From Minisyncoccota bacterium (GTDB lineage Bacteria; Patescibacteriota; Minisyncoccia; Phycocordibacterales; JACRKE01): DNA of 64,000 nucleotides. How positions within the stretch are numbered: position 1 is the stretch's first letter; each line of letters opens with the position of its first letter. This document shows positions 6,265 through 60,586 of this stretch, piece by piece. Both the position numbers and the translations under genes were made by a program. The stretch lies in the NCBI GenBank assembly GCA_041660505.1, contig JBAZWG010000002.1, forward strand, positions 868 through 64,867, in the 5' to 3' direction. The notes under the pieces were generated by a model. It was not told the DNA's origin. It saw only the letters and a program-made list of their open reading frames with translations, and did no database searches.

Positions 6265-6582
6265 ATGAACTCAAATAATAACATGGAGAGAACAGCACTA
6301 TTCTACATGGCGAATGCGCACCCAGAGATTGGGAGGATGTTGAACTATGCCGAAAAGGGCGAGACGATTGCAGCCGAAGCGGCGCAACAACGCGCCCTTG
6401 CTATCGTTGATACGATACTTGCGCGGCACGATATCGCTCCCGCAGGTAGGGAGGAGTGGCGTGCCGTAAAAAGTCTTCTGATGGGTTATACGATCCTTGA
6501 TGAGTACGCACGCAAGGTATTGCGGAACTTTGCCGAACCGTTTTCTTACAAATTTATGTATGAATACGCACATGGAAAGTAG
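6265..6582 (+). CDS. hypothetical protein
   Basis: ORF-track 6244..6582 begins at a TTG; the first in-frame ATG is 6265 (alternative 6283). No recognisable motifs. The 3' end overlaps the scpB start by 11 nt. Confidence 0.35.
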   Translation: MNSNNNMERTALFYMANAHPEIGRMLNYAEKGETIAAEAAQQRALAIVDTILARHDIAPAGREEWRAVKSLLMGYTILDEYARKVLRNFAEPFSYKFMYEYAHGK

Positions 6583-8193: not shown

Positions 8194-8201
8194 AGCAGAT
8201 T

Positions 8202-33547: not shown

Positions 33548-33592
33548 AATTTAAGTTGAAAGTTATAAAGTTACAAAGTTGAAAGTAATACG

Positions 33593-33603
33593 ATTATATC
33601 ACA
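33593..33603 (-). promoter_or_regulatory. extended -10 promoter TGTGATATAAT for frr, overlapping the holB stop
   Basis: Minus-strand TGtGATATAAT is the same 11-mer as upstream of the 13581 gene. It is followed by a ~40-nt leader rich in CTTTCAACTT repeats. Confidence 0.4.
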
Positions 33604-34255: not shown

Positions 34256-34260
34256 TTTAC

Positions 34261-34289
34261 TTTATACTTTAAAACTTTGTAACTTTCAA
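34261..34289 (-). promoter_or_regulatory. sigma70-type promoter for holB (TTGAAA-17-TATAAA); TSS predicted at or next to the ATG (leaderless)
   Basis: Minus strand: TTGAAA, then a 17-nt spacer, then TATAAAGT ending 6 nt before ATG 34255. Built from AAAGTTN heptad repeats. Confidence 0.5.
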
Positions 34290-34293
34290 CTAT

Positions 34294-35319: not shown

Positions 35320-35381
35320 TACCCTACTATAGCAAACACTTTTTACTGTCCAAAGCTTAGCTTTGATAATTTCGATATGTG

Positions 35382-35390
35382 TGGTATAAT
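35382..35390 (+). promoter_or_regulatory. extended -10 TGgTATAAT, 6 nt upstream of the RAYT ATG (leaderless)
   Basis: gtggtataat-ttaaca-ATG. Confidence 0.45.
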
Positions 35391-35396
35391 TTAACA

Positions 35397-36077
35397 ATGC
35401 GAATTATTGAATTTTGTGCGAATGAATATTACCACGTCTTTAACAGAGGCAATAATAAACAAGTAATCTTTCGCGATGATAGCGACCGTTTCCGATTCCT
35501 GTTCGCACTGCTTTTTTTTCAGGCTCCAATCAGCTATGACCAGATTGGCAGATATATAGTGTTTTTAAAAAGGCACAGGACGGACATTAGCCAGAATGAT
35601 TCATTAAAGGATTTAGCGGAGCACGTACTGGGCAAACGCTCTATAGAATTAATCAATTTTTGTCTTATGCCAAACCATTTCCACCTTGCCGTTAAGCCAA
35701 TGAAGGATAATGCAGTGTCGCTATATTTACATAAAGTATTAACTTCGTATACAAAATATTGGAATAAAAAATATAAGGCGACGGGACACCTGTTCGAAGG
35801 ATCATTCAAAGCTGTCCGTGTTGCTGATAATGACCAGTTTTTATATCTATCGACCTATATACACAGAAACCCCGCTGAATTATCGACGTGGATTGGTCGC
35901 GAGCATGAATATCCGTGGTCGAGTCTGCAAGACTACCTTGGTGTTAATCGTTGGGGAAAACTGCTTGCGACCGAAAATATTTTAGAGCAATTTGACTCGA
36001 TTGAGGAATATCGGGCTTATGTTAACGATAGCACAGCAAAAACCGGCGATGACGACATCGAGTTTGTCCAAAGCTAA
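35397..36077 (+). CDS. REP-associated tyrosine transposase (RAYT), HUH/Y1 family
   Basis: YHVFNRGNN...IF.DD.DR.RFL.LL, HUH motif LMPNHFHL, GHLFEGSFK, catalytic-Tyr region YIHRNPAELS, and the C-terminal YPWSS motif. Start at ATG 35397 (ORF-track GTG 35379 rejected). Confidence 0.7.
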   Translation: MRIIEFCANEYYHVFNRGNNKQVIFRDDSDRFRFLFALLFFQAPISYDQIGRYIVFLKRHRTDISQNDSLKDLAEHVLGKRSIELINFCLMPNHFHLAVKPMKDNAVSLYLHKVLTSYTKYWNKKYKATGHLFEGSFKAVRVADNDQFLYLSTYIHRNPAELSTWIGREHEYPWSSLQDYLGVNRWGKLLATENILEQFDSIEEYRAYVNDSTAKTGDDDIEFVQS

Positions 36078-36094
36078 GCTTTGGACATTGGACC

Positions 36095-38326
36095 CTACTT
36101 CCCGTACATATATAATGAGTAAATCTCATTGGCCGACAACTCGCGGTTATAAATACGCACGTCATCGATTCCGCCCTTCCACGGTTCAGCCGGCGCGCCA
36201 TAATCACCAATATACATATTTACTCCGCCATCGTTATATACTCCGCCAAGATTCTTGTTATCGCTACCCACAAGTCTACCATCTATATATAAATACTGTG
36301 CGGAGTTTGTTTTTACACAGACCATATGATGCCATTTACCGTCCTTATACACATTGCTTACTGCCGGGGACGCAATGGTCGCTGCAACTCTTAGACTGCA
36401 ATACATTTGAGTACCGCCACTATCCCCCATCAATACTGCACTACCAGCAGAGTATTTTCCCAGAATAAAATAAGCGGTGGCGCCAGGGACTTGCCCTCTA
36501 TTGAACCAAGCGGAATATGTCCAACTATTCGCATTGGTTGGCCCGAAGTTGTTGCCCAGATTTACAGTATTATTAGCGCCATTCTTTGGGAAATACAACC
36601 CTTGTCCAATTTTCCCTGCAATAATACTTGTCCCTGTCACTGTCCCATTTTTCCCATTTCCACTTTTGTCTAACATTACACCGGTAGTCCTGTCCACAGC
36701 ATCAAACGTCCACCAGCCGACGAGACCATTTGTGGTGCTTTGAGCCGAGACTAGCGCTGGACTGGCTGTGACCTTCGCGCCACCGAGTGTATATAATGAG
36801 TAAACTTCATTGGCCGACAAGGCGCGGTCGTAGACACGCATGTCGTCGGCTTGCCCTGAAAAAATACCGTCTGACTCGGCGTTACCAAATACTCCAAAAT
36901 AGTAAACACTGTTTGTTATATTAGGGGTTACCGTGGTCGGAGTACCGGATATCGCCTGTAGTACACCATTCACATATATCTGCGTGGTTGTATTTGCCGC
37001 GCCGGGAGATTTAACAATGGTCACTAAATACCATTTATTTGCCGTTAATGCACCTGCGGCTGTTGCGACAGAATTGCCGGAAGCGTATTCGACCGAAACA
37101 GCCCCTGCTCCGCGCAAATTAAAGAAGGTGCCTATAGCCGCACCAGCACCACCGTTACGATCACCCGTAAAAAGACCTGCGCCGGATGTTGTTGTATCTC
37201 TCAATTTCACCCACTGCGATAAGGTTATAGACGCATTACCAGAGATGCCAGAATTATTAGCACCAAGTAGATAACATTTCTGCCCATTTGTGGTCGCTGT
37301 TGGCGTAAGCGATATTCCTCGACTTATCTTCGCGGTTACAAATTGCGGCGTGCAATTCGTCCCGCTCTGTGTTGTAAACATATGACCATTACCAGTCTTA
37401 TCTATTGTATAAGTACTCCCTGAATCTGGGGTATCGAAAGTCCACCAGCCGACAAGGCCATTCGTGGTACTCTGCGCGGAAACTTTCGTCGGGCTTGCCG
37501 TAATCTTACTTGTACCGAGCTGGTACAGAGCTTTAATCTCGCTCGCAGACAATGCACGACTATAAATGCGCACGTCGTCGATAGAGCCGTTAAAGTTATA
37601 TCCTCGTGCGTTAACTCCGCCTGGTCCCCATGGGCCGTCTGCAGCAATATCCAATTCTCCATCCGGCGCATTTTGCGAACCGGTTATCGTTGTCGGGGTC
37701 TGGGCAATTCCGTCGATGTATAAGGTTATTGTTGTACCGTTTATTGTTTCGACCGCATGATGCCATTGATTATCTCCATAGGCACCGGCGCTCGTAGAAA
37801 AAAAGTCTGTACCGTTATAGTACTCCGCAGATACTGTATTATTCGTATTCATCAATAGACCCCAAAGATAGCGGTTGGGAGCATTATTAAGCGTATCTTT
37901 TCGGAGAATCGACATTTCACCTGCCGCATTCCCGCTCGTTTTAAACCAAGCCGAAATCGTAAGCGTAGAACCCAGCCGCAGGCTTGCGCTATCGGGCACG
38001 GCGACGTATTGCGATGCACTAATTGCGCTCCATGAAGCATTAGACGACAGAGCTTGGCCGATCTTGCCCTGCACTTTACTCATGCTTGTTAATGTCCCAT
38101 GATTTGCATATAAGCTTTTATCCCTCACTTGCGAACCTGTTACGTATCCTGAATCAAACGTCCACCAGCCAACAAGGCCATTCGTCGTGCCCATCGCGCC
38201 CAGAGCCTGCGCGCTCGAAACTGCAGACGCCTCTGCCTTGCCGGCCAAAAATAGCGCAGGCAACAAAAGCAAGAGCGCGAGGAACCTAGTTAAAAGTTTA
38301 ATGCTTACGAGTGTCACAATTTTCAA
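36095..38326 (-). CDS. secreted protein with four LamG-like (concanavalin A-like lectin/glucanase, Laminin_G_3-type) domains
   Basis: Signal peptide. Four repeats of TNGLVGWWTFD ... DDVRIY(S/D/N)RALSA(S/N)EI..LY. 743 aa. Starts 18 bp downstream of the giant gene stop, so likely the same operon. Confidence 0.8.
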   Translation of the reverse strand: MKIVTLVSIKLLTRFLALLLLLPALFLAGKAEASAVSSAQALGAMGTTNGLVGWWTFDSGYVTGSQVRDKSLYANHGTLTSMSKVQGKIGQALSSNASWSAISASQYVAVPDSASLRLGSTLTISAWFKTSGNAAGEMSILRKDTLNNAPNRYLWGLLMNTNNTVSAEYYNGTDFFSTSAGAYGDNQWHHAVETINGTTITLYIDGIAQTPTTITGSQNAPDGELDIAADGPWGPGGVNARGYNFNGSIDDVRIYSRALSASEIKALYQLGTSKITASPTKVSAQSTTNGLVGWWTFDTPDSGSTYTIDKTGNGHMFTTQSGTNCTPQFVTAKISRGISLTPTATTNGQKCYLLGANNSGISGNASITLSQWVKLRDTTTSGAGLFTGDRNGGAGAAIGTFFNLRGAGAVSVEYASGNSVATAAGALTANKWYLVTIVKSPGAANTTTQIYVNGVLQAISGTPTTVTPNITNSVYYFGVFGNAESDGIFSGQADDMRVYDRALSANEVYSLYTLGGAKVTASPALVSAQSTTNGLVGWWTFDAVDRTTGVMLDKSGNGKNGTVTGTSIIAGKIGQGLYFPKNGANNTVNLGNNFGPTNANSWTYSAWFNRGQVPGATAYFILGKYSAGSAVLMGDSGGTQMYCSLRVAATIASPAVSNVYKDGKWHHMVCVKTNSAQYLYIDGRLVGSDNKNLGGVYNDGGVNMYIGDYGAPAEPWKGGIDDVRIYNRELSANEIYSLYMYGK

Positions 38327-38344: not shown

Positions 38345-41300
38345 TTACGGCGTCGTACTCGTCGCATTTGGGTCTATTACGTTAACTATTCTTATCTGTT
38401 CGATGGCATTATTACCTGAATTATCTACTGCGTTATATTTAACCTCATGTGTACCGGCTAATGTTGTGTCTATCTGATCGCCTGTCGTGACTATGCCGAG
38501 ATTATGATCTACGTTGTCTGTAACTGTTGCGCCCATGTCGCTGTAACTCGAGCCCATGTTTATTGTAGATGGGTTGAGGCCGAGCATTGTGATGACCGGA
38601 GCCTCTGTGTCTGCTGGCGGGGTCGAAGTACCAGCAGGCGCCCCGGCTGGGGCAGTTCCTGCCACGCACTCCCCTGCTACGCTGGCGACGAGGCCACTTG
38701 ACACCTTCAAACAATACGGATTGCCTGTCGTGTCGTCATATAATGTGACACCTATCGGGTTTACTGACGAGCCAACCTTCATACTCTTTAACACGTTTAA
38801 GTCTTGTACCACCAATCTGCCGTTCTCGTCCAAGCTCCAGTTGCCCGAGGCAGAAGCCAGACTCTTTATATTGACTATTGCTTGCCCTTGCAGGTCGAGT
38901 ACGCGCGCTGTTGCGAGCTTCATATAACCCGTACTTTGATCTACTACCCAGTCTGAACTCACGGCGCCGTCTGCAATACCCGAAGAAATATTCTGATAAC
39001 CAAGATTGACGAAGACAGTAATACTGCCTGTCTGTGAATAAGAGCCGTCGGGTAGAGTGCCGCTCCAAGGCTCAAGGGCGATACCAACAGTCTGGCCGGA
39101 GGTCGTCGCCTTCATACCGATACCTGCCGCCGATGAAAGCGTGATGTAGTCACCAACCGCAATATCCCCTCCTTCAAGGTTAACTTTAGTCGGCACGCGA
39201 CCAGAGAGAGCCACGGGACGCGAAGTACTCGCCGTAAACTCCGAACTTGCACCACCGAGCAGAACACCGGGGTCAGTAGATATGATTCCTATTACCGGTA
39301 TGATAGTAGAACTTGCCTTTCTCACAACAAGAGTCGAGGTAGAAGTATCCAACGATACTAAGTCACCCGCCGAGATAGTCTCGTCCGTTATTTTGTAACT
39401 CTCTGCCAGGTCCACGGTTTGCGTCGAAGCTCCTCGAGAATAAATCTGTCCTGCCGGTACAGAACTACATGCTACCGTAGCGGAACTCGTTGACACGCAA
39501 AGACCGGAACCAGTCCCTGTTCCGTAAACTTCGAGCTTCGCCCCTGGCGTCGTCGTCCCGATACCGACGTTGCCCCCCTGTGCCTGAAAAGCGATATTCT
39601 GATTATATCCCGTGTTCTGCTGTATTCCTTGAAATTCAAAGACATTTGAGGCATTGGACATTGTAACCTGTAGTTGCTTTTGTGTTGTCCCCTGCTGATT
39701 TCCAAACTCCATAAGTTTAACGCGGTCTGTTGCAGTCTCGCTTACTGGAGAGATAACTCCATTCACGCTTAGCTTGTAGTTAGGTGTGGTTGTCCCGATG
39801 CCTACGTTGCCCGCGTTTGTTATTGACAACTTCTCCGAGCCTTGTACCGCTAACCCCATGGTTGCTCCTGTACCTCTTGCGTCTAAGAACGCTTTACCAG
39901 CATTACTCGTGTATATAGACAGACCAGTAGCGGCAGCAGCGGAGAAGGTGTTGTTGCCAATTACCAATCCATAAGGGCTATCATCATCTCCTGTTATTTT
40001 TAGCAGTTGTGTTGCGGCTGTCCCACCATCAAGAATTTCAAGTTTTGCCGAAGGACTCGTCGTCCCGATGCCGACGTTGCCATTCTGTTGTATTCTCATC
40101 TTCTCAGCATTAGCTGGTGAGAATGAGATATAGTTTCCAGTACCAGCAGAGTAGTTGGTTTGGAAATCAAGTGAATTATCACCAGCGTCATTGAAGGTTA
40201 TTTTGGCATACTGTCCCGCTACTCCTGCGCCCAAGTTATCCAAAACGATTTGCGGATTGCCGCGAGTCCCCTCGTGAATTGAAAGTTTAGCCCACGGAGT
40301 TGTGGTTGCAATTCCGACATTACCATTCGTATCTATCATCACTTGGTCAGTATTTGAATAGGAGTCTGACCCTTTTCCAAAAAACATTGTCCCATTACTA
40401 CTCTGTATGTAGCGATGATGCAAACCAGATACGGCATCGGTATCAGAAAGATAAAACATTGGGGCGATATTGGCGATATTTAACAAATATGCTGGCGTCG
40501 TCGTCCCGATACCGACGTTGCCGTTTCGGAGCACTGTGAACGATGTCGTTGTTGCCGTTAATGTTGAGCTGGCCACCGTGAATATCGGCTGGGTGCCGTC
40601 AACATTGCTGTCGCTTGTGTTGGCGGAGACAGAGAGTTTGGCCCATGGGGTTGTGGTGCCGATACCGACTAGCCCGCCGGAGGTGATACGCATGGCTTCG
40701 GTCATTGCGGTGCTATTGTTGGTACTGAAAGCTAAGTAGCCAAGTTGATTGTTTGTTGTAGAGTTTTCTTTAAACCCAACGATGCTGGCGAAATTTCTGA
40801 TCGATGAGGGGATTAATGGTACATCGTCTTTATAACCACCGAAGGCGATAGAGCCACCGGTATCTACAGCTTGGGAATTATTCGATCGTATCAATAATTG
40901 TCCCGTAGCGGTACGCGTCGGGACGGTGCTCGAGCCATAGATATCAAGCAGAGCTAGCGGCGTCGTCGTGCCGATGCCGACATAGCCACTGCGGAGGATT
41001 GTAAATAATGAATTGGTGGCGCTGGCGGTAGAGCTCGCAACGACAAAGAGCGGGGTGGCCATGTTGGCAGAGGAGTCGGTCGTATTGCCTTGTATCGAGA
41101 GTTTAGCAAATGGTGAGGTAGTGCCGATGCCGACAAAACCATTAGTGGTGAATTGGCCTGTGCTTGTGGTGGTGGCGTTGCCGTTCACGGTCAAAACAGA
41201 TGTTGATGTTGTGCCTGTTGTAGTGAGGTTGGCGTTGGTGCCAGAGGAACCAATGAGAACGCCACCGGCAAAGTTGGCGGCGACGCCGTTCGGGTTGGTA

Positions 41301-44300
41301 ATTGGATAGCTGACAATAACAATACCGGAACCGCCACCGCCACCCGCGCCTCCTTCTGTAGCACCGCCACCTCCACCGCCCGAGTTAGTGGTTCCGGCAG
41401 TACCAGCACCAGAAGTACCTCCTGCGCCACCGCCACCAAGCCCTCCAGAACCTCCGCTTTGAAGATCGCTGGAGCCACCACCACCGCCACCATAGTAGAC
41501 GGTGGTTACACCATCGCTAATAGCGGTAGTTGTGCCTATTCCGCCGACGCCGGCGGCTGCATCTGACCCATTACTACCAGTAGCACCCGCTCCGCCACCA
41601 CCACCGCCACCATTATTCTGTGCCGCTCCGCCACCATTATAGCCTTGCCCCGAAGTACCGTTACCGCCTGATTGACTGCCGGCACTGGCAGCACCGCCAC
41701 CAGAACCACCATCGCTACCAGCCCAAGTGAACGCTTGAGAACCTCCCTTACCTCCTCCTGTGGCCACTACAGTACCAAACTGCGAATCGCCTCCGTTAGT
41801 ATTAGTGCTACCGGTAGCACCCGCTCCGCCAGCACCGACTACTACTGTTATGCTTTGAGAAGGCGTCACCGCGTATGAATATCCGTTACTAGGTCCGCCG
41901 CCAACAACTCCTCCTCCACCTCCTCCACCGCCATCAACCCACGAAGTAACGCCGTTCTTGCCTCCACCGCCACCACCTGCCACCACGAGCACCTTAACGC
42001 TGGTTACACCACTACTTGGAACGGTAAAAGTGACAGACCCGGTATTGGTAAATGTATGAACCCTGTAGGTCTGTCCACCTGACGTATAGGTAGTGACGGT
42101 TCCTTGATTGTCTGTAGCCGATGGCGTTGAGCCTACTGCATTAACATCGAGTGAATATGCCGGCGTCACAACGCCGATGCCGACGAGGCCTGCGGACGTG
42201 ATAGTTGTTGTTGCAGTTCCTCCAAACCACGACTGATCGTTGACGGAAAGTTGAGTTGTCGAAGCATTAGTAAACGTGGCTTGGCCGGTGACTGCGAGCG
42301 TGCCGGATAATGTCGTTGCGCCGGTGACGGAGAATGTGCCACCAACGGATGTGTCGCCGGAGACAACGAGAGCTGATGTGCTTGCTGTGCCCGTCACCGC
42401 CAGATTCGTCGTCGTGGCGTTGGTGCCTGTGGCATTCACGAAGGTGAAGTTTTGGAGGGTGGTGCTACCTGTGAGCAAGATGTTGGTGGCGGTGAGGAGA
42501 CCGTTATTAAGAAGCGTAAGCCTCTCGTTGTTCGCGAAGTCGGCGAAGGCGAAGAGTCTGCCGGTGTCATTGGTGCCGAAGCCGTTGACGGCGAACTTGG
42601 CGGATGGCGAGGTTGTGCCCACGCCGACACGGTCGGAATATGAACTGCCGGTGCCGTCGGCAAGAGCGTAGACCGTGAGGGTGGAGGTAGCACCAATGCC
42701 AGCCGAGAAGCCGAGCTCGGTACCGGAGGCGAGCGTTGTCGAGGCGAGAGGCATATTGATCCAATCAATGAGACCGGCGTCGGCCTCGAAGGATTGCGAG
42801 CCGGTGATGAGCTGGGCAATGGTGGTTGAGCCGGTGTTGTCTATAGAGAAGAGCGTGGTGGAGGCACTGTCTGTGACTTCGAAAGCTCGGCCTGATGACG
42901 TGGCTGTGCCCCAGATGGTAACCTTGGCATATGGCGAAGTGGTGCCGATGCCGACGTTGCCTGTCGATGAAATGTAGATGGAAGAGGTGGCCTGTGCTAC
43001 TCCCGCATCGTTACCGACGAGCAAGAAGCCTTTCGTAAGATTGAGAGTGGTGAGAAGTGAGGATGTGGCAGTTGAATACAATCCGCCGGTAGAAGTAAGT
43101 GATGCAAAACCGGATGTGTAAGAAGAGAATGTCGCGTTGCCGGAGACTATGAGCGCGGATGTGCTTGCGATGCCCGTCACCGCCAGATTTGTCGTTGTCG
43201 CATTCGTGCCCGTGGCGTTTGCGAAAGTAAAGTTCTGGAGAGTAGTTGACCCCAGTGTAAAGATATCGCCGAGATAATTCACAGAGAATTTGGTGGAGGA
43301 TGCGACTTTCATATCTAGCAACATACCGGAGAAACCGGCTAGGGCATCGGTGCCGATAACTGTGCCCGTGGTGGAGAGTTTTTCGACAGAAAGTAGGGCG
43401 TATGGTGATGAGGTACCAATGCCCAACAAGCCTTCGGCGGTCACTGCGCCGAGAACCGTACCAGAACCATTTTGCCATTCTTGCAGATCTGCTGTTTGGC
43501 TTGTGATGCCTTGTACGATCAAACCTTTTTCACCGACCTCAGCAGTGCTGACGTGAAGTTTAGCGAGCGGTGTGGCATGCGAGGTGGCGGTATTGCCGAG
43601 AACAAGGGAGCCTATGAAGATCCAATCTGATTGGCTGGCGCTTATATTGAGTTTGTAATATCTATAGTTCTGTGCTGTACCTAGGGCATATGTTCTGATT
43701 TCACCAGAGCTCCAAGCGGGAACATTTGTTTGTGTATTCAAAACAGTCCATGCCGAATTGTCGTTTGAACCCTCGAATGTCCAAGTTTTTGGCCCATAGG
43801 TGTAATAAGTGGTATACGAGTCTGCCTGGATTTTATATTGATTTACAGTTGTATAGGTTCCCAAATCAATTTTCAACCAACCTGAAGTACCATTAACACA
43901 CCACGCCGTCGAAGAATCTGAATCAAAAGATTGCCACGCAGAACAGTTGACCTCTGTAGACGCACTTGCCACATACGGCGAAGGGGCGCTGTCGCTCGTC
44001 AAGAATGTCGGGATCTGAACATTTGCCGGCGTAGAACCAATAGCTAAGCGAGAGTTTATCGAGTCAAAATACATGATGCTGTTATTCTGACTGACTGCTC
44101 CATTAGCACCAATATACGGGACAGAGCCAGAAGTAAGCGCGGTAAGCGAGAGCGTACCGCCAACCGTTGAATTGTCGCTGACGATGAGCGCAGAAGTTGA
44201 TGCTGTACCCGTGACTGCAAGGTTGGTGGTTGTCGCATTGGTACCCGTAGCATTGGCGAAAGTGAAGTTCTGCAATGTAGTTGATCCCAACGTAAAGATG

Positions 44301-47300
44301 TCGCCAAGATAATTTACGGAGAACTTGGTGGATGAGGCGACTTTGAGATCAAGTAACGTACCGGTAAATGTTGATAATGAATCAGCGCCAATGACGGTGC
44401 CTGAAGAAGATAGATGTTCGATAGAGAGACGAGCATATGGGGTTGAAGTGCCCATTCCGATCAGGCCGTTATAGAATGATGTGAAGATAGGGGCGGAACT
44501 TGTGGCGTTTTGTAATGAAAATATGGAGATACTTTGTGAACGAGAGGTCGTAGCGTTGAGCGAGAAGAAGCCGTTCACATTCAGACTGTTCCAAAGTCTG
44601 GTATTCCCCGCCACTTCGACATTGCCGGATGAGAAAATGTCGCCGGAGTAAATTGATGATGCGCCGGAGTCGGCCTCGGCAAGAGTACTGCTTGAGTAAG
44701 CGAAGCCGATCATGTCAAGAGTACCAGCCAGCATTGTGCGCGCCAATGATGAATATTCAACAGATGAAAGTGCGGTCGTACCGCCATCATTTGTTCCGGC
44801 GATGGCATAAACATAACCATTTACAACAAGAGATGTGTGATATTCCCTAGCACCGCTAAATGGCGTAGCGGTGAGCGTCGTCCACGCGCCGAGAGTGCCA
44901 TTTGCATATATCTTGGCATATTCGATGGAGGAAAGGTTGCCGCCGCCGATACCGCCCATCGCGTACAAATATCCGTTTGCCACCACGGCGGATAACGCTC
45001 CTCTGGCTGTATTAAGAGGAGTTGCGGTGAGCGTCGTCCACGCGGCCAGCGTGCCGTCGCTGTTTATCTTCGCTGACTCTACCGACGATATGGACGTTCC
45101 ACTTGTTATTCCACCAATTGTATAAATATATCCTCCAACAACAACTGACGCGTGAATATTTCTGGCTGCGTTAAGCGGTGTCGCCGTTAGGGTCGTCCAT
45201 GTACCAAGCGTACCGTCACTATTTATCTTCGCATATTCGACGGTAGCGGTATCGCTTATGCCGGTACGACCGCCCATAACATATACATAACCGTTAGAAA
45301 CTACGGAGGCGTGCGCGTATCTGGTGATATTTAATGATGCCGTCGTTTTCCACGCACCGAGCGTGCCGTCGCTGTTTATTTTTGCGTATTCGACAGTATT
45401 AACCTGTACTCCACCTGTACCATTACCACCGATGGCGTAGACATATCCGTTGGCGGCGATAGAACTGTGCTGATATCTTGTGATGGTAAGCGATGACGTT
45501 GTTGTCCACGCACCAAGTGTGCCATTACTGTTTATCTTGGCATATTCGACAGATGAAAGCCTGGTACCGTTGTATCCACCGATGGCGTAGACATATCCGT
45601 TGGCGGCGACTGATGTCTGTTGGTAACGAGTCGTGCCTAGAGATGATGACGTTGTCCACGCGCCAAGTGTGCCATCATTGCCGGAGTTGAGCGCAATTGT
45701 TTTCTGCGCAACCGATACCGGATACACAGGGGATGAAGTCCCGATGCCGACGTTGCCGCTATTCTGCTGGACAACGAATTGCGATGTGCCAACTGTTAAG
45801 CCGCCCGTTGAGAATGTGGAAGTGGCGGTGGTGGAAGTAATTGCGAGCACGCTCGTTGTACCGATTGATGCGGTAAAATTCTGGAGCGTGGTACTGCCCA
45901 GCGTAAAGATATCACCGAGATAATTCACCGAGAACTTGGTGGAGGATGCGACTTTGAGATCGAGCAATAGGCCGGAGAAGCCGGTGAGCGCATCTCCCGC
46001 GATAAGCGTGCCGGCAGAAATCCCGTCGACGGAGAGCTTGGCGTAGGGCGTTGAGGTACCGATACCGACGTTACCGGCAGTACCTTCTATCACCATGCTG
46101 GTTTGCGGTGTTGCAAACATGTCTCTCGGAGTAGTTAGGAACCGAATTGCTGTTGGTACGGTGTCACCATTGTCTTCGGCTTGTTTCGCGGCGACAATAT
46201 CCAAGACTCGCGCATAACGACCCGCAGACGGATAATCTATTACATAGTTATATGAAAATGTGGCTCTGTCGTCCGCCAAATAACTCGGCAAACTCGTTCC
46301 TCCATATCCTCTGAATATTTTTATATCTTTACCATAAACGTCTAAACCTGCAGTGGGACTTTCGGTCCCTATTCCTACGTTGCCGCCGCGTGTTACAACA
46401 AAGTTAGTTGTTGTAGCAATATCGGTTGAGGATGATATCAAGAAGAGCGGTGCGATTAGGTCTAGATCGGAAGTGTTGCCACTCACAGAAAGTTTCGCGT
46501 AAGGCGAAGTGGTACCGATGCCGACGAGGCCAGTATCGGTGATGGTCATCCGCTCGGCACTGGCGGTTACGAATCGAAGGAAGTCGTCATCACCGGCGGT
46601 GATGTAGGTGGTCTGGGCGGCGTTGATGACACCGCCTAGGCCTTGCCAGACACTGTTGTCGCCGAAGCCTTCGAACTGGTGCGTCGTTGTGTTGTAACGG
46701 ATCTGGCCGGCAAGCGCCATGCCCGGTCTCTGGGCTGTTGTGCCAATTGGGAGATGGACTGCGTCGGTGGCGTAGATGTCGAGACTCGTGGCCGGTGTTG
46801 AAGTGCCAATGCCGATGCGACCGCTTGATGACTGGACGATGAATTGGCCGGAACCGATATTAAGGCCGCCTGTCGCGAACGTCGATGTAGCTGTTGTCGA
46901 TGTCGCAGTGAATGACGAGGCGACCACTTCGCCCATAACAGAGAGCGGTGCATATGGCGAGCTGGTGCCGATGCCAACATTGGAATTGCGGTAGATGTTG
47001 GAGCCGTTCACCGTCCAATTGGAGAATACTGCCGCAACACCATTCTGGAGTAATGAACCAGTGATGTTGATATCGCCCGCCACATCGAGCGCATGTTCGG
47101 GAGAAGTAGTGCCAATGCCGACAAGGCCGGTGAAGATGGCGCCAGTGCCGGTGGTGGTGCCCGTAAGTGTCCCGCCACCAAGCGGCAGATACCCGGAGAT
47201 TGTGCCCCCGCCGGTGAAGGTGCCGGAGATGGTGGCATTGGTGATGGTAACGCCGTTCAATGAATCGATGCGATTAGAGAGACTGATGGCGCGATAGTTG

Positions 47301-47833
47301 CCGGCATCGACAGCGGCGCCATGCGAAGCGTTGGCGTAGATGAGGGCTGTGAGTTTGTTGTCGAGCTGGTTCAGCTTGGTAGCCAAGTCACTTGATGTAA
47401 CACCGGAACTTGTTTGTTGGTAAATGATTGTTGGTTTGGTTGTTGTAACGGTTCTCGCGGGCGCACTGCCGATGACAGAAATCTTGCCCGCCAAACTATT
47501 GACTTGATCACGTAATGCTTGTATATCGCTGTTTACAGTTGTAGTTGACAGAGTATCAGATATCGTGGCAATGTCGGTGACTTTTTGACTGATAACAGGG
47601 GTGGTAACTGTGACTGTCGGAGAGGGCTTTTGGACCTGCGGAGAGAAGAAGGAGATGAGCGACGTTTGAACGCTATTGAATATGTCCCCTATCGTACTGC
47701 TGATGCTTGCCATATATTGGCTAGGTAGAGCCGTATATTCATTGACGAGGGAGGCGTGAGCTAGCGAAAAATTTGCAATAAAAAAGACGGTTAAAACCGC
47801 AAAGTAAACTACAAATTTTCGCACCGAATGCAT
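38345..47833 (-). CDS. giant secreted multidomain surface protein (3162 aa). It has tail-fibre-like GIGT repeats, a Kelch-type beta-propeller, a discoidin (F5/8 type C) domain, a Gly-rich domain, a tail-fibre-like C-terminal module and an Ig-like (DUF5011-type) domain.
   Basis: Signal peptide [27 protein letters not shown]. About 20 copies of G(N/L)VGIGT(T/S)(S/T)PxAKLxV. About 6 YVYAIGG Kelch blades (aa ~715-1060, nt ~44650-45690). Discoidin-like [31 protein letters not shown]...YRYYKL (aa ~1290-1415). Gly-rich [14 protein letters not shown]... (aa ~1955-2175, nt ~41320-41960). [19 protein letters not shown] module (aa ~2808-2990). C-terminal Ig-like [31 protein letters not shown] (nt ~38380-38610). 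No C-terminal TM or sortase signal. Confidence 0.85.
   Translation of the reverse strand: [3162 protein letters not shown]
42300..46000. repeat. three to four near-identical ~250-300 bp direct repeats inside the giant gene
   Basis: Copies around 45860-46000, 44160-44350, 43140-43330, and a partial copy at 42300-42480. They encode (G/M)LLD(L/M)[46 protein letters not shown]. They are potential recombination or size-variation substrates. Confidence 0.7.
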
Positions 47834-47886: not shown

Positions 47887-47928
47887 TGTGGATAATTAAT
47901 CCTTATTCTGTAAGGGTATTTATCCACA
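47887..47928. promoter_or_regulatory. pair of perfect DnaA-box 9-mers in inverted orientation
   Basis: tgtggataa at 47887-47895 (TTATCCACA on the minus strand) and ttatccaca at 47920-47928, 24 bp apart, in the divergent intergenic region between the giant gene and the priA-like gene. TTGACA at 47931-47936 is adjacent. Confidence 0.5.
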
Positions 47929-47986
47929 GGTTGACATTTTTATTCGGTTGGTACTTTTCTGGCCGAAAATAGGGTACAATCACCTC

Positions 47987-49669
47987 ATGCAGGTCATCAC
48001 ACTTATCCCCATCGTCCGTGGTATCGGCAAAGACGAGCTTACCTACTTCTCTACCCTGCCTGTCAAGGTCGGCGACATTGCCACTGTCACCATCAACTCG
48101 CGCGAAGTGCGCGGGATAGTCACGGACGTACTCGACGCGAGAACGGCAAAGAATTCTGTGAAGCGCGGAGACTTCGCGCTAAAGAAGGTTCTGAAGATCG
48201 AGCCGGGATTTATTGCACCATCTGTCATTTCTGTAGCAAAAGAAACTTCTGATTATTTCGCTTGTTCAGTGAGTCAGGTTCTCGGCTCGATGTACCCCAA
48301 AAACGTACTAAACGAAGTTGAAAGTAAAAAGTTGCCGTGCCTGCCGGCAGGCAGGAAAGTTGAAAGGAATCACCCCTCTCCTTCGGGGAGGGGCCGGGGT
48401 GGGGTTGCAATCGAAGGAACCCGGCAAGATCGTTTTGTTTGGATTCAAAAAAACTTAATCAAGAGGAATATGAAAGTCTTATATATTTCACCATCGAATC
48501 ATGAACTAGCAAAAGCTAAAAAAGTTTTCAATGATACTGAAATTATTTGCGTATCGCCGGAATATGGCTTTGTATGGCTACCTTATGTCGATACGATAAT
48601 TTTAGATAACGAAAGTGGCGCTGGCTATCATGATAATTCACGGGCACAAATAGATTTTAAAAAAGTGTACGAATTTCATGCGCTGGAAAATAAACAGCAA
48701 ATAATTTTCGCTGATAACGTGCTTGATCTCAAATATTTCGCAAATCCAAAAAGTGGCCAACATCGGGTGTTGACCACTTTTCCAAAAGTTATGGTGGTAA
48801 AAAAGGAAAAAACTGCTCTGCATAATTCTTGGCTCGTGAGTAAAGAAGCAGTGGGATTGACGGAAAAAATACTTGCAAAAAATTCTAGAATGTTCTTCTT
48901 CGCTCCACGTAAAAGTATCGCGAGTATCACCGTATGTGGTGATTGCGGCGAAACCGTGCAGTGTGAGACTTGCAAACGGCCACTTATGCTCGCACGCAAG
49001 AATGGTAAACGAATATTCATCTGCCAAAAATGCTCTCAAATCACGCAAGTAGATATATCATGTGCAAGCTGTAATAGCTGGAAGTTGAGACCCCTGGGTG
49101 TGACAGTTGACTCTGTCGCTGATGAGCTGGAGCGATTATTTCCCAAGGCGACCGTCTTGCGAGTGTCGGGCGACATCACAAAGACCAAGACCCAACTTGC
49201 AAAAATCATCAAACAATTTTATGCCACATCCGGCGCGCTGCTCGTCGGCACCGAGCTTGCGCTCCCCTATCTCGAACAGCTAATTTCTTATTCTGTAATC
49301 TCCAGTATCGATTCGTTTTTATCAGGCAGAAGTTTGTCAGGTACGGACAAAGCCGCGCGAATTATCTTTGAGGTTGCAACCCTTGCCCATGAAAAAGTTT
49401 TAGTAGAAACAAGCGACCCACACCAGCAATTTTTTCAAGATATTTCTGATGGCGGAGGTTTAACCTCCGCTATGCTAAAAACATATCGCGAACATGAACT
49501 TGCAGAAAGAAAAAAGTTTAACTATCCGCCATACAGTATTATCATAAAAATAAATTCAGAAATATTTTTTATAAATAAAGAGAAGTGGCCGGACGCAGAA
49601 CTCGTCGCGAGAATTCGCGCGTTGCCAAAGGGCTCAACCTACACCATAGACGCAAACAGTGTCGTGTAG
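47987..49669 (+). CDS. primosomal protein N' (PriA)-like, with degenerate helicase ATPase motifs
   Basis: Start set at ATG 47987 (TACAAT 6 nt upstream; ORF-track TTG 47948 rejected). N-terminal 3'-DNA-binding domain. PriA Cys-rich zinc-binding region CGDCGETVQCETCKRPL...CQKCSQ...CASCNS is collinear with the E. coli PriA CHDCG..CPRCD..CHHCD..CPSCG region. Walker A GxTGSGKT is absent (YISPSNHELAKAK instead), and DEEH is replaced by DNES (IILDNESGAGY). It carries an in-frame REP-like element at 48301-48360. Confidence 0.6.
   Translation: MQVITLIPIVRGIGKDELTYFSTLPVKVGDIATVTINSREVRGIVTDVLDARTAKNSVKRGDFALKKVLKIEPGFIAPSVISVAKETSDYFACSVSQVLGSMYPKNVLNEVESKKLPCLPAGRKVERNHPSPSGRGRGGVAIEGTRQDRFVWIQKNLIKRNMKVLYISPSNHELAKAKKVFNDTEIICVSPEYGFVWLPYVDTIILDNESGAGYHDNSRAQIDFKKVYEFHALENKQQIIFADNVLDLKYFANPKSGQHRVLTTFPKVMVVKKEKTALHNSWLVSKEAVGLTEKILAKNSRMFFFAPRKSIASITVCGDCGETVQCETCKRPLMLARKNGKRIFICQKCSQITQVDISCASCNSWKLRPLGVTVDSVADELERLFPKATVLRVSGDITKTKTQLAKIIKQFYATSGALLVGTELALPYLEQLISYSVISSIDSFLSGRSLSGTDKAARIIFEVATLAHEKVLVETSDPHQQFFQDISDGGGLTSAMLKTYREHELAERKKFNYPPYSIIIKINSEIFFINKEKWPDAELVARIRALPKGSTYTIDANSVV
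48301..48360 (+). repeat. REP/MITE-like element in frame inside the priA-like gene. It is AAGTTGAAAG-flanked, with a 14-bp perfect palindrome gcctgccggcaggc.
   Basis: gaagttgaaagtaaaaagttgccgtgcctgccggcaggcaggaaagttgaaagg encodes ...NEVESKKLPCLPAGRKVERN.... A second GC hairpin (cccctctcc-ttcg-gggagggg-like) follows at 48372-48395. It is near-identical to the minus-strand copy at 51549-51583. Confidence 0.7.
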
Positions 49670-49678
49670 TATAGTAGG

Positions 49679-50254
49679 GTGATGAAAGTGATGTTGGATG
49701 GCGCACCGGTACTGCGCGAAAAAGCAAGAGAAGTACCTGTACCGGATATCAAAAAAGGCTTATATAAAGCCATGGTTGCAGACATGCAGGCTACGCTCCT
49801 GAAGTGCCACGATGGGGTAGCCTTGGCCGCCCCGCAGGTCGGCAAGAGCATCAGATTATTCGTAATATCGCCAAAAGTATTTCAAGCCGAACAGGAGTTA
49901 GGAGATGGGAGATCGGAGTTAGGGAAATCCAAAACCGTATCCCCCAAACTCCAAACTCCTAACTCCCAACTCCCACGCCTCGTCTACTTCAACCCTAAAA
50001 TAAAAAAAGTTTCTGCCAGTAAAAAAGATCTCGATGAAGGCTGCCTCTCGGTGAACGGCCTCTATGGCAAAGTCCCGCGCAGTACAAAGGCGCTGATTGA
50101 AGCCTACGACGAATACGGTATGAAGTTTACGCGCGGAGCATCGGGCCTGCTCGCGCAAATCTTCCAACATGAAGTCGATCATCTTGATGGCATTCTCTAT
50201 ATCGACAAAGCATCGGAACTCAAGCAATTAGAAAGTAGGAAAACAGATGCTTAA
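49679..50254 (+). CDS. def: peptide deformylase, carrying an ~28-aa repeat-encoded insertion
   Basis: GVALAAPQVG, EGCLSV and QHEVDHLDG motifs are intact. The segment ELGDGRSELGKSKTVSPKLQTPNSQLPR lies between the conserved VIS and LVYFNP blocks, where E. coli Def has only ~8 residues. Confidence 0.9.
   Translation: MMKVMLDGAPVLREKAREVPVPDIKKGLYKAMVADMQATLLKCHDGVALAAPQVGKSIRLFVISPKVFQAEQELGDGRSELGKSKTVSPKLQTPNSQLPRLVYFNPKIKKVSASKKDLDEGCLSVNGLYGKVPRSTKALIEAYDEYGMKFTRGASGLLAQIFQHEVDHLDGILYIDKASELKQLESRKTDA
49911..49987. repeat. imperfect hairpin element built from GGAGTTN / AACTCCN heptamers, in frame inside def
   Basis: Left arm gggagatcggagttaggg, a ~20-nt loop, right arm ccaaactccaaactcctaactcccaactccc. 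Confidence 0.65.
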
Positions 50255-51164
50255 TTCGAATGGAAGTTGGGAGTTGGGAGTTGGGAGTTGGGGAAAATAC
50301 AACTTCGTATTTTTTGGTACTTCTAACTTCGCCGTCATAGTTTTAGACGAGCTCAAGGCCGGCGGCTATCTACCGAGTTTAATTATTACAGTGCCTGATT
50401 CCCCGCAGGGCAGAAAGCAGATAATTACTCCTTCACCGGTTAAACTCTGGGCAATTGAACATAATATCCCTATCGAACAACCCGAGAAACTCCTAACTCC
50501 CAACTCCCAACTCCTAACTCCTAACCGTGACTTCGGCATTGTCGTTGATTACGGCAAAATCATTCCGCAGAAAATTATAGATATCCCGAAACACGGACTT
50601 CTGAACGTACACGTGTCTCTTTTGCCAAAATTTCGCGGGGCTTCGCCAATGCAAACAGCAATACTTGAAGGCGAAGCAGAGACCGGCGTAACTATAATGC
50701 AAGTGGTAAAGGGGCTCGATGAAGGCGATATAATTGCACAAGAAAAATTTGATTTGGCTAACTGGCACCCGTATTTTCTTGAACTTGCAGACAAAACCGC
50801 ACATGCCGGCGGTAAATTGCTTGTAAAAATTCTGCCGGATTATCTCGCCGGCAAAATTACACCAATTAAACAAGATAATTCTAAGGCAACTTTTACGCGA
50901 AAATTCGAGGTGCAAGACGGTTTTATAAAACCTGAAATCGTGCTGGGCACAGAGACTGGAGAATTGGCGCAAAAAGCAGAAAGAAAAGTCCGTGCCCTGA
51001 ATCCAGAACCCGGCACCTGGACCGAGTTAAAAATAAGAAATACGGCTCTACGTATAAAGATTCTGAAGGCGCACTTAGAAGTAGATAAATTTATACCCGA
51101 CACTGTAATACCCGCCGGCAAGAAAGAGATGTCGTGGCAAGACTTCAAAAACGGGAATCTGTAA
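50247..51164 (+). CDS. fmt: methionyl-tRNA formyltransferase
   Basis: Start ATG 50247 overlaps the def stop (ATGCTTAA). VFFGTSNFAV, HVSLLPKFRGASPMQ, and a C-terminal domain. The N-terminal 13-aa extension SNGSWELGVGSWG is encoded by (AGTTGGG)4. LLTPNSQLLTPN is encoded by (AACTCCN)5. Confidence 0.9.
   Translation: MLNSNGSWELGVGSWGKYNFVFFGTSNFAVIVLDELKAGGYLPSLIITVPDSPQGRKQIITPSPVKLWAIEHNIPIEQPEKLLTPNSQLLTPNRDFGIVVDYGKIIPQKIIDIPKHGLLNVHVSLLPKFRGASPMQTAILEGEAETGVTIMQVVKGLDEGDIIAQEKFDLANWHPYFLELADKTAHAGGKLLVKILPDYLAGKITPIKQDNSKATFTRKFEVQDGFIKPEIVLGTETGELAQKAERKVRALNPEPGTWTELKIRNTALRIKILKAHLEVDKFIPDTVIPAGKKEMSWQDFKNGNL
50254..50286. repeat. (AGTTGGG)4 tandem heptamer repeat at the fmt 5' coding end
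   Basis: gaagttgggagttgggagttgggagttgggg. Confidence 0.75.
50491..50529. repeat. (AACTCCN)5 tandem heptamer repeat inside fmt (reverse complement of the 50254 repeat family)
   Basis: aactcctaactcccaactcccaactcctaactcctaacc. Confidence 0.75.
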
Positions 51165-51548: not shown

Positions 51549-51600
51549 GTTATTTAATAAACTTTCCTGCCTGCCGACAGGCATGGCAACTTTATACTTT
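51549..51600 (-). repeat. REP-like element copy in the hpf leader / promoter region. It has a TATAAAGT -10-like box, the gcctgtcggcaggc palindrome, and (AAAAGTT)2.
   Basis: Minus strand reads gttaaaagttaaaagtataaagttgccatgcctgtcggcaggcaggaaagttta. About 90% identical to 48311-48352. Confidence 0.65.
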
Positions 51601-51606
51601 TAACTT

Positions 51607-59827: not shown

Positions 59828-60586
59828 CTAGATTTGTTTGCGCGCATTGCCGGCGATGCTACCGCCTTCATTCGCCACCGCCTTATTCTCGTCTAAATTT
59901 TTCGGTTCGCGCTTTCCGGAGATTTCTGTCGTTGCCGTTTCTGCGAGCATATTCAAGACCAGTTCCAGATTGGTCATATTGTCCCGCAGATTTTCTTTCT
60001 TTAAATCTTTGAATTTTTTGTATTCTCTCGTGGTCATGCCGGTCCAAGCCTTTGAGATTTCGTCAGTCAAAATAGCGAATTCCAATCCTTCTTTGACACC
60101 GCGCTTTTCCCATTCATCGGTCAATGCTTTGCGAATTTCAATACTTTTTAGTCTCTGGTTCACCCACTCTGGGCTGTATCCTTTTTGTAAATATGTTTTA
60201 AGCGCACGATTAATAGTAAGCTCTGGGTCAGCAGTCTCTTCGAGCCGTTCATACCCTACCTGTGCGAGCCAAAGCTTAAATGGCTCTGCGTTAGGAGAAG
60301 GAATTGACTGGATAAGCCTAAGTATTGTTTCTGTGTCGGCCGCGTCGGTTTCTCTTTGCTTTCCGTCCTCTGCTAACATTTTCAACCGGTGACATTTTGT
60401 CACCACTTCACTTCCTTCTTCTTTTAATCGCTGTGCCAGTTTATTCCAATACTTTCTAGGGTCGGTACTCCCGGCCAACACTCTCACAACATCAACCACG
60501 GAAAAATACCAAAGCTCGTTATCTTCGTCCCAATGTCGACGTATTTGTGCTCCTTCGAAAATAGCGACTGCTTTATTCCTTTTCAT
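59828..60586 (-). CDS. DinD-like protein (Bro-N domain), paralog 2
   Basis: WYFSVVDVVRVL, IQSIPSPNAEPFKLWLAQVGYERL, LTDEWEKRGVKEGLEFAILTDEI and LELVLNMLAE are collinear with the 31037..31894 protein. Confidence 0.65.
   Translation of the reverse strand: MKRNKAVAIFEGAQIRRHWDEDNELWYFSVVDVVRVLAGSTDPRKYWNKLAQRLKEEGSEVVTKCHRLKMLAEDGKQRETDAADTETILRLIQSIPSPNAEPFKLWLAQVGYERLEETADPELTINRALKTYLQKGYSPEWVNQRLKSIEIRKALTDEWEKRGVKEGLEFAILTDEISKAWTGMTTREYKKFKDLKKENLRDNMTNLELVLNMLAETATTEISGKREPKNLDENKAVANEGGSIAGNARKQI

Follow-up and report, generated by a model that had tools for sequence, protein, structure and literature searches.

PriA has been described as the only restart protein conserved across all bacterial phyla, and its helicase motifs as conserved, Deinococcus excepted (PMC5778457). 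We have analysed a 64-kb stretch of DNA (hereafter the window) from a bacterium of Paceibacterota (CPR/Patescibacteria), in which the ORF at 47987–49669 on the forward strand encodes a 560-aa PriA orthologue with neither the ATPase motifs nor the winged-helix domain. We refer to this gene as priA* and to its product as PriA*. Our search of the literature on PriA or the primosome in CPR, Patescibacteria or Parcubacteria returned nothing relevant. Overall, we consider it quite probable that priA* is a vertically inherited priA orthologue which has become a pseudohelicase, and that its product would act as an ATP-independent scaffold for fork recognition and helicase loading, by analogy similar to the PriA of Deinococcus radiodurans but more reduced.

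PriA* is a member of the PriA family

The N-termini of the orthologues (M-x-V-x-T-x-IPI) favour the ATG at 47987 over the TTG at 47948 as start codon, and the resulting product is identical to an NCBI/JGI protein (P0001) of a Candidatus Paceibacterota MAG. NCBI names this protein hypothetical because the curated PriA models score such proteins under their cutoffs, which is a matter of some consequence for annotation. The NCBIfam model TIGR00595 (priA) gives 121.5 bits, under the equivalog cutoff of 230.35, and its match is confined to model positions 88–423, which leaves the model's Walker A part without a match. Among the Pfam families, PriA_3primeBD (PF17764) alone is found (aa 18–104, E 1.7e-5, with 25.0 bits, the cutoff being 22.7).

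More sensitive comparisons leave little doubt about the family. Searches by sequence match PriA chains of the PDB with an E of ~6e-14, and the profile-profile alignment with canonical PriA by hhalign reaches a probability of 100% (E 6e-66, 618 collinear columns). The AF2 model (pLDDT 83.9, pTM 0.82) has two RecA-like SF2 lobes. In the Foldseek search with this model, the best nine matches are all PriA, with E from 4e-28 to 4e-19 and a query-normalised TM up to 0.66; the first is E. coli PriA (8fak_H, E 4e-28), and the second is an engineered PriA with the winged-helix domain deleted (6dcr). Canonical PriA (E. coli/K. pneumoniae; PDB 4NL4, 6DGD, 8FAK; TIGR00595) is the best match in sequence, profile and fold alike. 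The two share the domain order of 3' DNA-binding domain (3'BD), two RecA-like lobes, an eight-cysteine zinc region within lobe 2, plus a CTD (C-terminal domain), shortened in PriA*, with YPP. An earlier reading of this DNA from its sequence alone (the sequence-only reading) had described the ORF as collinear with PriA, from the 3'BD through a Cys4-Cys4 region to the C-terminal domains, and the Pfam, hhalign and fold matches agree with it.

Domains kept, trimmed and lost

PriA* has 560 aa, compared with about 730 in canonical PriA. The 3'BD (aa 1–104, 47987–48298, forward strand; PF17764) is kept, and its Y20 and the lysine of LKK are conserved in the family. Within RecA lobe 2, the cysteine-rich region (48935–49072, forward strand) carries four CxxC pairs, C317/320, C326/329, C346/349 and C359/362, and is predicted to bind two zinc ions. 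In the family alignment C317, C320, C359 and C362 are invariant, while C326, C329, C346 and C349 are conserved in at least 90%; all four CxxC pairs are present in 161 of the 172 proteins scanned. The CTD (aa 496–560, 49472–49666, forward strand) is reduced but keeps E504, R508 and Y513-P514-P515.

On the other hand, much has been trimmed. Alignment, model and hhalign consistently show that PriA* has no winged-helix domain: about 100 residues of canonical PriA are without an equivalent, and a 30-aa disordered linker takes their place. Relative to the wider family, lobe 1 of PriA* is shorter by about 35 aa, while the CTD of the PriA* subfamily is shorter by about 50 aa with its YPP region conserved; among close orthologues lobe 1 is strongly conserved. 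In addition, the aromatic-rich loop (ARL) of the subfamily no longer has its aromatic residue and reads RAQ where RP[YF] is otherwise found. Considering this loss together with the shorter CTD, the alignments suggest that the subfamily's binding of forks or SSB may be weaker than that of the wider family.

The helicase motifs are lost

A pattern scan of the 560 aa for G....GK[ST], D[ED][EAS]H and GR[AS]GR has found none of them anywhere in the protein. At the motif I position, hhalign places IEGTRQDRFVW (aa 142–152, 48410–48442, forward strand), in which, according to both the family alignment and hhalign, R149 occupies the position of the Walker A lysine. The family columns of this former P-loop read Q-x-x-[DE]-E-[ED]-R...Y, with the arginine in 160 of 162 members. 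The loop is shortened and its glycines have given way to acidic or polar residues; in the AF2 model a strand (139–143) leads through a two-residue turn into a helix (146–158), with no glycine-rich loop. The sequence-only reading had put the P-loop position at YISPSNHELAKAK (aa 166–178, 48482–48520, forward strand), and here it needs correction: this segment aligns with LVPEI(S/A)LT of canonical PriA and is the motif Ia equivalent, since three independent alignments, by MAFFT, by hhalign and by the order of strand, turn and helix in the model, assign Walker A to IEGTRQDRFVW.

The other motifs have fared no better. At motif II (48602–48616, forward strand), LDNES stands in place of (I/V)DEEH according to the PDB match, the family alignment and hhalign, and the family as a whole reads [ED]-x-E-[SN]-S. 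Motif III is altered to G-D-x-x-L across the family, and the arginine loop of motif VI (QxxGRxGR) is deleted in PriA* and in the family. In the remainder, the earlier description holds: Walker A and DExH are indeed missing, with DEEH replaced by DNES in the PDB match and the loss borne out by the TIGR00595 and hhalign alignments, and the scan has found no alternative P-loop elsewhere in the protein. Its prediction of a helicase-dead PriA is supported within the reach of sequence comparison and structure prediction: at the structurally homologous positions motifs I, II and VI are gone, while PriA* retains the fold of PriA and the zinc region. The motif loss supports the prediction that PriA* has no ATPase activity. 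The former P-loop has probably been rebuilt as a conserved acidic-acidic-Arg turn which would stabilise the lobe interface in place of nucleotide, and we propose a putative salt bridge between R149 and D207/E209 there. The deletion of motif VI, the loss of the winged-helix domain and the trimming of lobe 1 and CTD are additional features of PriA* that the sequence-only reading had not mentioned.

The loss is family-wide and the gene holds the ancestral position

PriA* is by no means an isolated case. Its relatives form 579 clusters at 50% identity with E <= 1e-30, and hundreds of diverged relatives agree with it in length and in the remodelled motifs. The sequence-only reading had suggested that orthologues in related genomes be checked for the same degeneration, and they do share it: at the homologous columns, motifs I, II and VI are present in 0 of 162 full-length relatives of the Paceibacteria type, and they are also missing in 120 of 120 proteins sampled from a second Patescibacteria clade (Magasanikbacteria type). 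As the loss of the motor is common to hundreds of related lineages, these bacteria probably restart replication with PriA as a passive scaffold.

The immediate neighbourhood is also that of canonical priA. The next gene is def (peptide deformylase; 49679–50254, forward strand; PF01327, E 4e-40), followed by fmt (methionyl-tRNA formyltransferase; 50247–51164, forward strand; PF00551), which overlaps the end of def, and priA* would be co-transcribed with both. These two genes lie directly 3' of priA* in 59–60 of 70 related GTDB loci as well as in the close orthologues, and beyond them no neighbourhood gene is conserved in those loci, be it for PriB, DnaT, DnaD or a loader. The neighbourhood is the one known from Firmicutes, the order priA-def-fmt being well established for B. 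subtilis. A PriA-Def fusion protein (P0021) among the canonical forms agrees with this order.

For priA*, dN is far under dS, with dN/dS about 0.06, a value that is indicative only because dS is saturated. Judged from these substitution rates, the gene is held by strong purifying selection. A tblastn search with four canonical PriAs has revealed no other PriA-like sequence in the 64-kb window, nor is there any in about 1 Mb of related loci, where the additional matches are UvrB; in one locus (L006) UvrB adjoins priA* and has GVTGSGKT and DESH intact. In the profile search of genome contigs, one narrower family alignment gave no match and the wider-family alignment matched. Complete Paceibacteria chromosomes are exemplified by OZ244961.1 and OZ246398.1.

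A proposed scaffold without a motor, and its alternatives

For the function of such a protein, naturally occurring and laboratory variants offer a guide. The PriA of D. radiodurans, in which Walker A has undergone a K-to-R change, shows neither ATPase nor helicase activity, yet it binds DNA and DnaB (Lopper et al. 2015, PMC4504706), and the PriAs of Deinococcus-Thermus match the consensus of motifs I and II poorly, with K-to-R within the GKT of Walker A (PMC4504706). In E. coli, priA300 (K230R), which is devoid of ATPase activity, still supports PriA-PriB restart (PMC5778457). PriA* resembles the D. radiodurans pseudohelicase in that an arginine stands where Walker A has its lysine and that motif II is poor, and by analogy it may be expected to lack ATPase and helicase activities and to serve as a fork-binding scaffold in contact with DnaB. 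There are differences as well. Unlike in Deinococcus-Thermus, the glycine-rich loop of PriA* has gone and is filled by acidic residues, and PriA* has also lost motif VI by deletion and has no winged-helix domain; its lineage is another one (Patescibacteria), and the radiation is far larger, with its 579 clusters plus a second motif-less clade. Compared with priA300 (K230R) and the protein of 6DCR, which are single-feature variants made in the laboratory, PriA* combines both losses naturally and is trimmed further.

With its 3'BD, two catalytically inert RecA-like lobes, two-zinc region and trimmed CTD, PriA* would employ the 3'BD and the inert lobes' DNA-binding face to recognise a fork or D-loop that has been abandoned, and would then nucleate the reloading of DnaB without ATP, either directly or via a putative loader; both steps are modelled on E. 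coli priA300 (K230R) and D. radiodurans PriA. The zinc region is a likely protein-contact module. Unwinding of a duplex lagging arm would be the task of another enzyme, or the forks might already expose single-stranded DNA. The presumed client is the replicative helicase DnaB encoded at 18051–19427 (forward strand), which has an intact Walker A (ARPSMGKT), a Pfam DnaB_C match with E 8e-102 and the DnaB N-terminal domain.

A first alternative is that the PriA fold has been repurposed here for something other than restart, as a DNA-binding or adaptor protein or, as the sequence-only reading had offered for its second option, as the subunit that targets a separate motor. Such a change would fit with the absence of motor and winged-helix domain, with the partly lost CTD and with the missing aromatic residue of the ARL, but the modules used to recognise forks and to assemble the primosome, namely the 3'BD and the zinc region, are the ones that PriA* has kept. 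The former P-loop has not merely decayed but been remade into a new and highly conserved motif, which could point to a new role, and restart factors besides PriA are stated to be unknown in most phyla (PMC5778457), which also counts in favour of this alternative. However, no conserved partner gene adjoins priA* in the related loci, the gene holds the operon position of canonical priA, and neither the window nor the ~1 Mb of related loci contains a second priA that could carry restart. We therefore regard repurposing as improbable, albeit the best of the alternatives.

Much less credible is an ATPase or helicase that is still active and binds nucleotide in a non-canonical way via unusual residues. 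Such an enzyme could draw on the near-invariant arginine in place of the Walker A lysine and on motif II, whose second acidic position holds a conserved glutamate, but K230R by itself abolishes the ATPase of E. coli PriA and the natural D. radiodurans enzyme is likewise inactive (PMC5778457, PMC4504706). Here, moreover, acidic residues occupy the phosphate-binding positions, the model has a two-residue turn where the glycine-rich loop should be, motif III is changed and motif VI has had its arginine-finger loop deleted. For E. coli PriA a second, weaker site for nucleotide has been mentioned (PMC5778457), and even with this in its favour we give the idea very little chance. A decaying duplicate, the intact priA being located in another part of the genome, which the sequence-only reading had allowed for, is the least plausible of all: although the inspected part of the genome is 64 kb only and the product is named hypothetical, the reading frame is intact, the ancestral priA-def-fmt position is held under purifying selection (dN << dS), hundreds of diverged relatives in separate 50%-identity clusters share the length and the remodelled motifs, and no other PriA-like sequence is found in the window or in the ~1 Mb of related loci, where the additional matches are UvrB only.

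If the scaffold reading of PriA* is true, several consequences follow. These bacteria would represent a second natural group of motor-less PriAs, much larger and more radically reduced than that of Deinococcus, and the conserved core job of PriA would be fork recognition and scaffolding of helicase loading rather than unwinding. As natural minimal PriAs with neither winged-helix domain nor ATP site, members of the group could be used to map the surfaces sufficient for restart. The question is then raised how CPR bacteria with very small genomes handle forks with a duplex lagging arm. A more far-reaching scenario, which we put forward tentatively and rate somewhat below an even chance, is that the motor and the winged-helix domain were lost once, in the common ancestor of at least Paceibacteria and the Magasanikbacteria type (ABY1) and possibly of the whole CPR; that restart there runs on an ATP-independent PriA scaffold; that the acidic-acidic-Arg former P-loop is a new latch or partner-binding site; and that the 560-aa form, consisting of 3'BD, inert lobes and zinc region, is near a minimal functional PriA. 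A single ancestral loss would imply ATP-independent restart throughout a radiation to which a large part of bacterial diversity belongs.

DnaA boxes upstream of priA*

Two features noted in the sequence-only reading are real but lineage-specific and stand beside the main argument. The first is a pair of perfect DnaA boxes, TTATCCACA, just upstream of the gene, one at 47887–47895 on the reverse strand (100 nt upstream of the start codon) and one at 47920–47928 on the forward strand (67 nt upstream), the latter directly followed by a conserved TTGACA. No further perfect copy occurs in the 64 kb, for which chance predicts about 0.5 copies in total, and the geometry of the pair is kept in one orthologous locus (L085). 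Since two of three close orthologues, and 77 of the 79 loci scanned, have no such boxes upstream of priA*, the pair falls outside the general priA* mechanism. In the sublineage of priA*, this conserved pair between divergent promoters probably ties priA* expression to DnaA.

We have also considered a replication origin at the pair, which is not supported: there are just two perfect boxes and one imperfect box, most related loci have none, GC skew tracks gene orientation with no clear switch, and along the records of two closed chromosomes the locus has relative positions of about 0.57 and 0.87. A single sigma-70 promoter formed by the conserved TTGACA and TACAAT has been discarded as well, as their spacing is about 37 nt and the promoter scan gave no match there.

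Hairpin repeats in the linker and neighbouring genes

The second is the REP-like element in frame within the linker. The repeat-derived hairpin linker (aa ~110–138, 48315–48400, forward strand) lies at the site of the canonical winged-helix domain and consists of a first element at 48315–48361 and a second at 48371–48400, with hairpins TGCCTGCCGGCAGGCA and CCCCTCTCCTTCGGGGAGGGG and flanks AAGTTGAAAG(T/G). It is disordered in the AF2 model (pLDDT < 50 at aa 121–136), and its predicted fold energy is −35.7 kcal/mol, a value without shuffle control. Only two copies of the first element occur in the 64 kb, the one in frame and a 91% inverted copy at 51560–51606 on the reverse strand, in the intergenic region between a DUF167 gene and hpf. 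Orthologues have different hairpin elements at the linker site. A Y1 transposase (Y1_Tnp) gene lies between fmt and hpf at one orthologous locus (L083), while none is among the window ORFs scanned.

The neighbouring genes show the same tendency, with an in-frame heptamer-hairpin insert of its own in def (49893–49975) and two in-frame heptamer arrays in fmt. As with REP and Rickettsia palindromic elements, hairpin-forming repeats are found in frame in several housekeeping genes, and the one of the linker also between genes; unlike those elements, the repeats here are largely heptamer arrays (AGTTGGG, AGTTGAA, AACTCCT).

Family assignment and loss of the helicase motifs

The ORF of priA* is listed at 47948–49669 (+), and the ATG at 47987 is its most likely start, since the resulting N-terminus (MQVITLIPIV...) fits those of all relatives. 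A database protein from a Candidatus Paceibacterota MAG has the identical 560-aa sequence; NCBI names it "hypothetical protein" and JGI "primosomal protein". The sole Pfam match in PriA* is the PriA 3' DNA-binding domain (3'BD; aa 18–104, E 1.7e-5). The NCBIfam priA model (TIGR00595) gives 121.5 bits, far below its 230-bit cutoff, and is matched at model positions 88–423 only, so that the Walker A-bearing start stays unmatched. Residues 195–525 match solved PriA structures (E ~6e-14) with LDNES opposite IDEEH, and profile–profile comparison by hhalign of the PriA* family with canonical PriA gives a probability of 100% (E 6e-66, 618 aligned columns). With the AlphaFold2 model (pLDDT 83.9, pTM 0.82), Foldseek puts only PriA structures close, with 8fak_H best (E 4e-28) and 6dcr, an engineered winged-helix-deletion PriA, second; other SF2 helicases come far behind. 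The Pfam, hhalign and Foldseek matches bear out the PriA homology proposed in the sequence-only reading.

We have checked the motif loss in three ways, by alignments with canonical PriAs (a multiple alignment and a 167-sequence MAFFT alignment), by hhalign and on the AlphaFold2 model. In the alignments, the canonical Walker A GVTGSGKTEVY is replaced by IEGTRQDRFVW (aa 142–152), which puts R149 at the position of the Walker A lysine, motif Ia (LVPEIxLT) by YISPSNHE, motif II (DEEH) by DNES, motif III (GSATP) by ADNVL and motif V (GTQM) by GTEL, and the QVxGRAGR loop of motif VI is deleted. The hhalign register is the same, with the canonical winged-helix segment unaligned, and in the model the place of the P-loop is occupied by strand 139–143, a two-residue turn and helix 146–158. 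A pattern scan finds no G....GK[ST], D[ED][EAS]H or GR[AS]GR anywhere in the protein, that is, no P-loop string at another place either. Since alignments, hhalign, model topology and pattern scan agree, the earlier reading of a PriA without Walker A and DExH, its Walker B box being DNES, is right, and its prediction of a helicase-dead protein is supported, except that the peptide it assigned to the P-loop, YISPSNHELAKAK, is actually motif Ia.

The 3'BD is kept, including the conserved Tyr (Y20) and the LKK lysine, as is the signature at the start of the C-terminal domain (CTD; E504...R508...Y513-P514-P515). The zinc region has retained all eight cysteines; in the family alignment C317, C320, C359 and C362 are invariant and C326, C329, C346 and C349 at least 90% conserved. 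Compared with the 620–650-aa relatives, the small subfamily of the window protein (P0001–P0004) has ~35 aa less in RecA-like lobe 1 and ~50 aa less in the CTD. Its loop after motif II, which touches the fork junction in E. coli PriA (PMC5175346), reads RAQ instead of RP[YF], and the aromatic residue is gone.

Breadth of the motif loss

When 1.84 billion representatives were searched exhaustively with HMMER, 579 clusters matched at E <= 1e-30, and among the matches listed nearly all of 150 clusters are 600–675 aa long. In the 162 full-length members, the homologous columns never hold motif I, II or VI; in the few cases where a pattern does match, it falls elsewhere in the sequence. The former P-loop has the consensus Q-x-x-[DE]-E-[ED]-R-x-x-x-Y (R in 160/162 members) and motif II [ED]-x-E-[SN]-S; the replaced sites are not random. 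GTDB loci with the family belong to Zambryski-, Campbell-, Taylor-, Yonath-, Kaiser- and Nomurabacteria and other Paceibacteria-type MAGs. Many records are titled "uncultured Candidatus Saccharibacteria", and because they show up to 56% identity to a Paceibacteria-type query, these titles are probably loosely given. A second, more distant clade (the P0025 family, its members named Magasanikbacteria or Patescibacteria group) is likewise devoid of the glycine-rich loop, DExH, motif VI and the winged-helix domain, in 120 of 120 proteins sampled. The motif loss, seen in 162/162 Paceibacteria-type and 120/120 P0025-type proteins, belongs to the family and is not peculiar to this locus.

Orthology and selection

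Directly 3' of priA* lies def (49679–50254), followed by fmt (50247–51164). The priA-def-fmt order, which is canonical in Firmicutes, is shared with the close orthologues and with 59–60 of the 70 GTDB loci that extend far enough downstream. In the 967-aa P0021, a canonical PriA that has kept every helicase motif is joined to a C-terminal peptide deformylase domain; this fusion is independent evidence of the tight priA-def linkage. Against three orthologues dN/dS is ~0.06, with dS saturated, and lobe 1 is one of the regions that orthologues conserve best. As for a decayed duplicate of an intact priA, which the sequence-only reading had considered, no other PriA-like sequence is found in the 64-kb window or within ±8 kb in 85 related loci. 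The extra matches in these loci are UvrB, with GVTGSGKT and DESH kept, and the window DnaB retains ARPSMGKT, which indicates that motor motifs are maintained where they are needed. PriA* is very likely an orthologue, not a decayed copy.

Possible mechanism and known pseudohelicases

Domain architecture, motif loss, conservation, synteny and an intact DnaB in the window are established for PriA*. The K230R mutation in E. coli PriA kills ATPase and helicase, yet PriA-PriB restart is supported (PMC5778457), and D. radiodurans PriA (natural K-to-R), with no ATPase or helicase, still binds ssDNA, forks and DnaB (PMC4504706). By analogy with these precedents, CPR PriA* may recognise abandoned forks via the 3'BD and inert lobes and would nucleate DnaB reloading without ATP, leaving duplex lagging arms to other enzymes. 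More speculatively, the conserved acidic-acidic-Arg turn probably replaces nucleotide in holding the lobe interface.

PriA pseudohelicases are already known as a kind from Deinococcus-Thermus, and our full-text literature searches found no paper that connects PriA motif loss with CPR, Patescibacteria or Parcubacteria. As PriA* differs in degree of loss (no P-loop, motif VI deleted, winged-helix absent, further trimming), in lineage and in breadth of radiation, it should be a variant within this known kind.

The linker and other repeats

Residues ~110–138 of PriA* stand in for the missing winged-helix domain. The in-frame REP-like element reported there is indeed present: the linker DNA forms two hairpins bracketed by AAGTTGAAAG(T/G), and the first hairpin unit recurs inverted (91% match) at 51560–51606, in the intergenic DNA that separates the DUF167 gene from hpf. 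The linker peptide is predicted to be disordered in the AlphaFold2 model, and at exactly the same site three orthologues have different hairpin or heptamer-array elements, namely GGAGCTC/GGAGCTT repeats (L081, ~6340–6400), a CCCCTCCCCTTCGGGGAGGGG hairpin (L083, ~4530–4600) and AAGAGTC/AAGAATT arrays with inverted AATTCTT arms (L085, ~2930–3030). Disorder, recurrence and element diversity together mean that the linker is a tolerant hotspot for such elements, seemingly by insertion, and not a functional part of PriA*. L083 also has a Y1 tyrosine transposase gene (7853–8518; IS200/IS605-type, possibly REP-associated) between fmt and hpf, close to the position of the window's intergenic hairpin copy.

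Other genes in the window have repeats too. Heptamer arrays of GGAGTTA/GGAGTTG and the complement CCAACTC/CTCCTAA occur in frame in def (49893–49975) and fmt (50261–50292, 50487–50525), where they form inverted arms and encode extra peptides, for example QELGDGRSELGKSKTVSPKLQTPNSQLP, SWELGVGSWG and LLTPNSQLLTPN. Heptamer repeats of the AAGTTGAAAGT type (33553–33588, 34222–34246, 34257–34292) flank and enter a short holB-like gene (33599–34255, −; 218 aa), which covers no more than the C-terminal portion of the DNA_pol3_delta2 profile. In the intact M50 peptidase ORF (31901–32992, −), two perfect 26-nt inverted arms (TGAAAATTCGGAGGTCGGACCTCCGA and complement), 6 nt apart, form a palindromic insert at 32720–32777, apparently in frame.

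Upstream region and surroundings

The two perfect DnaA boxes (TTATCCACA) noticed immediately upstream of priA* are confirmed as the only perfect sites in the 64 kb, lying inverted and 33 nt apart in a 153-nt divergent intergenic region. In L085 (50% protein identity) the pair recurs in identical arrangement, and the two loci share ~60 nt of conserved non-coding flank, in which TTGACA comes right behind the second box and a TACAAT lies close to the start codon. In the other two close orthologues the spacer is very short and lacks DnaA boxes; among the 79 loci scanned, a perfect upstream box is seen in only one more. We infer that DnaA controls the divergent promoters in a lineage-specific way; an origin at the box pair is unlikely.

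Divergent from priA* is the gene of a giant 3162-aa repeat-rich protein (38345–47833, −) with ...GNVGIGTTSP... units and Gly-rich tracts, followed by that of a 743-aa protein with three Laminin_G_3 domains (36095–38326, −); in orthologous loci this position is likewise taken by Laminin_G_3 or pilin-like (N_methyl) genes. Two MreB paralogues (28720–29784, −; 34294–35397, −), 5.5 kb apart, share an 80-nt stretch at 79% identity, near mreC, two PBP2-type transpeptidases, rodA/ftsW and mur genes. The otherwise housekeeping region also encodes two proteins (31037–31894, −; 59828–60586, −) with the BRO-N domain, which is typical of phage or virus antirepressor-like proteins.
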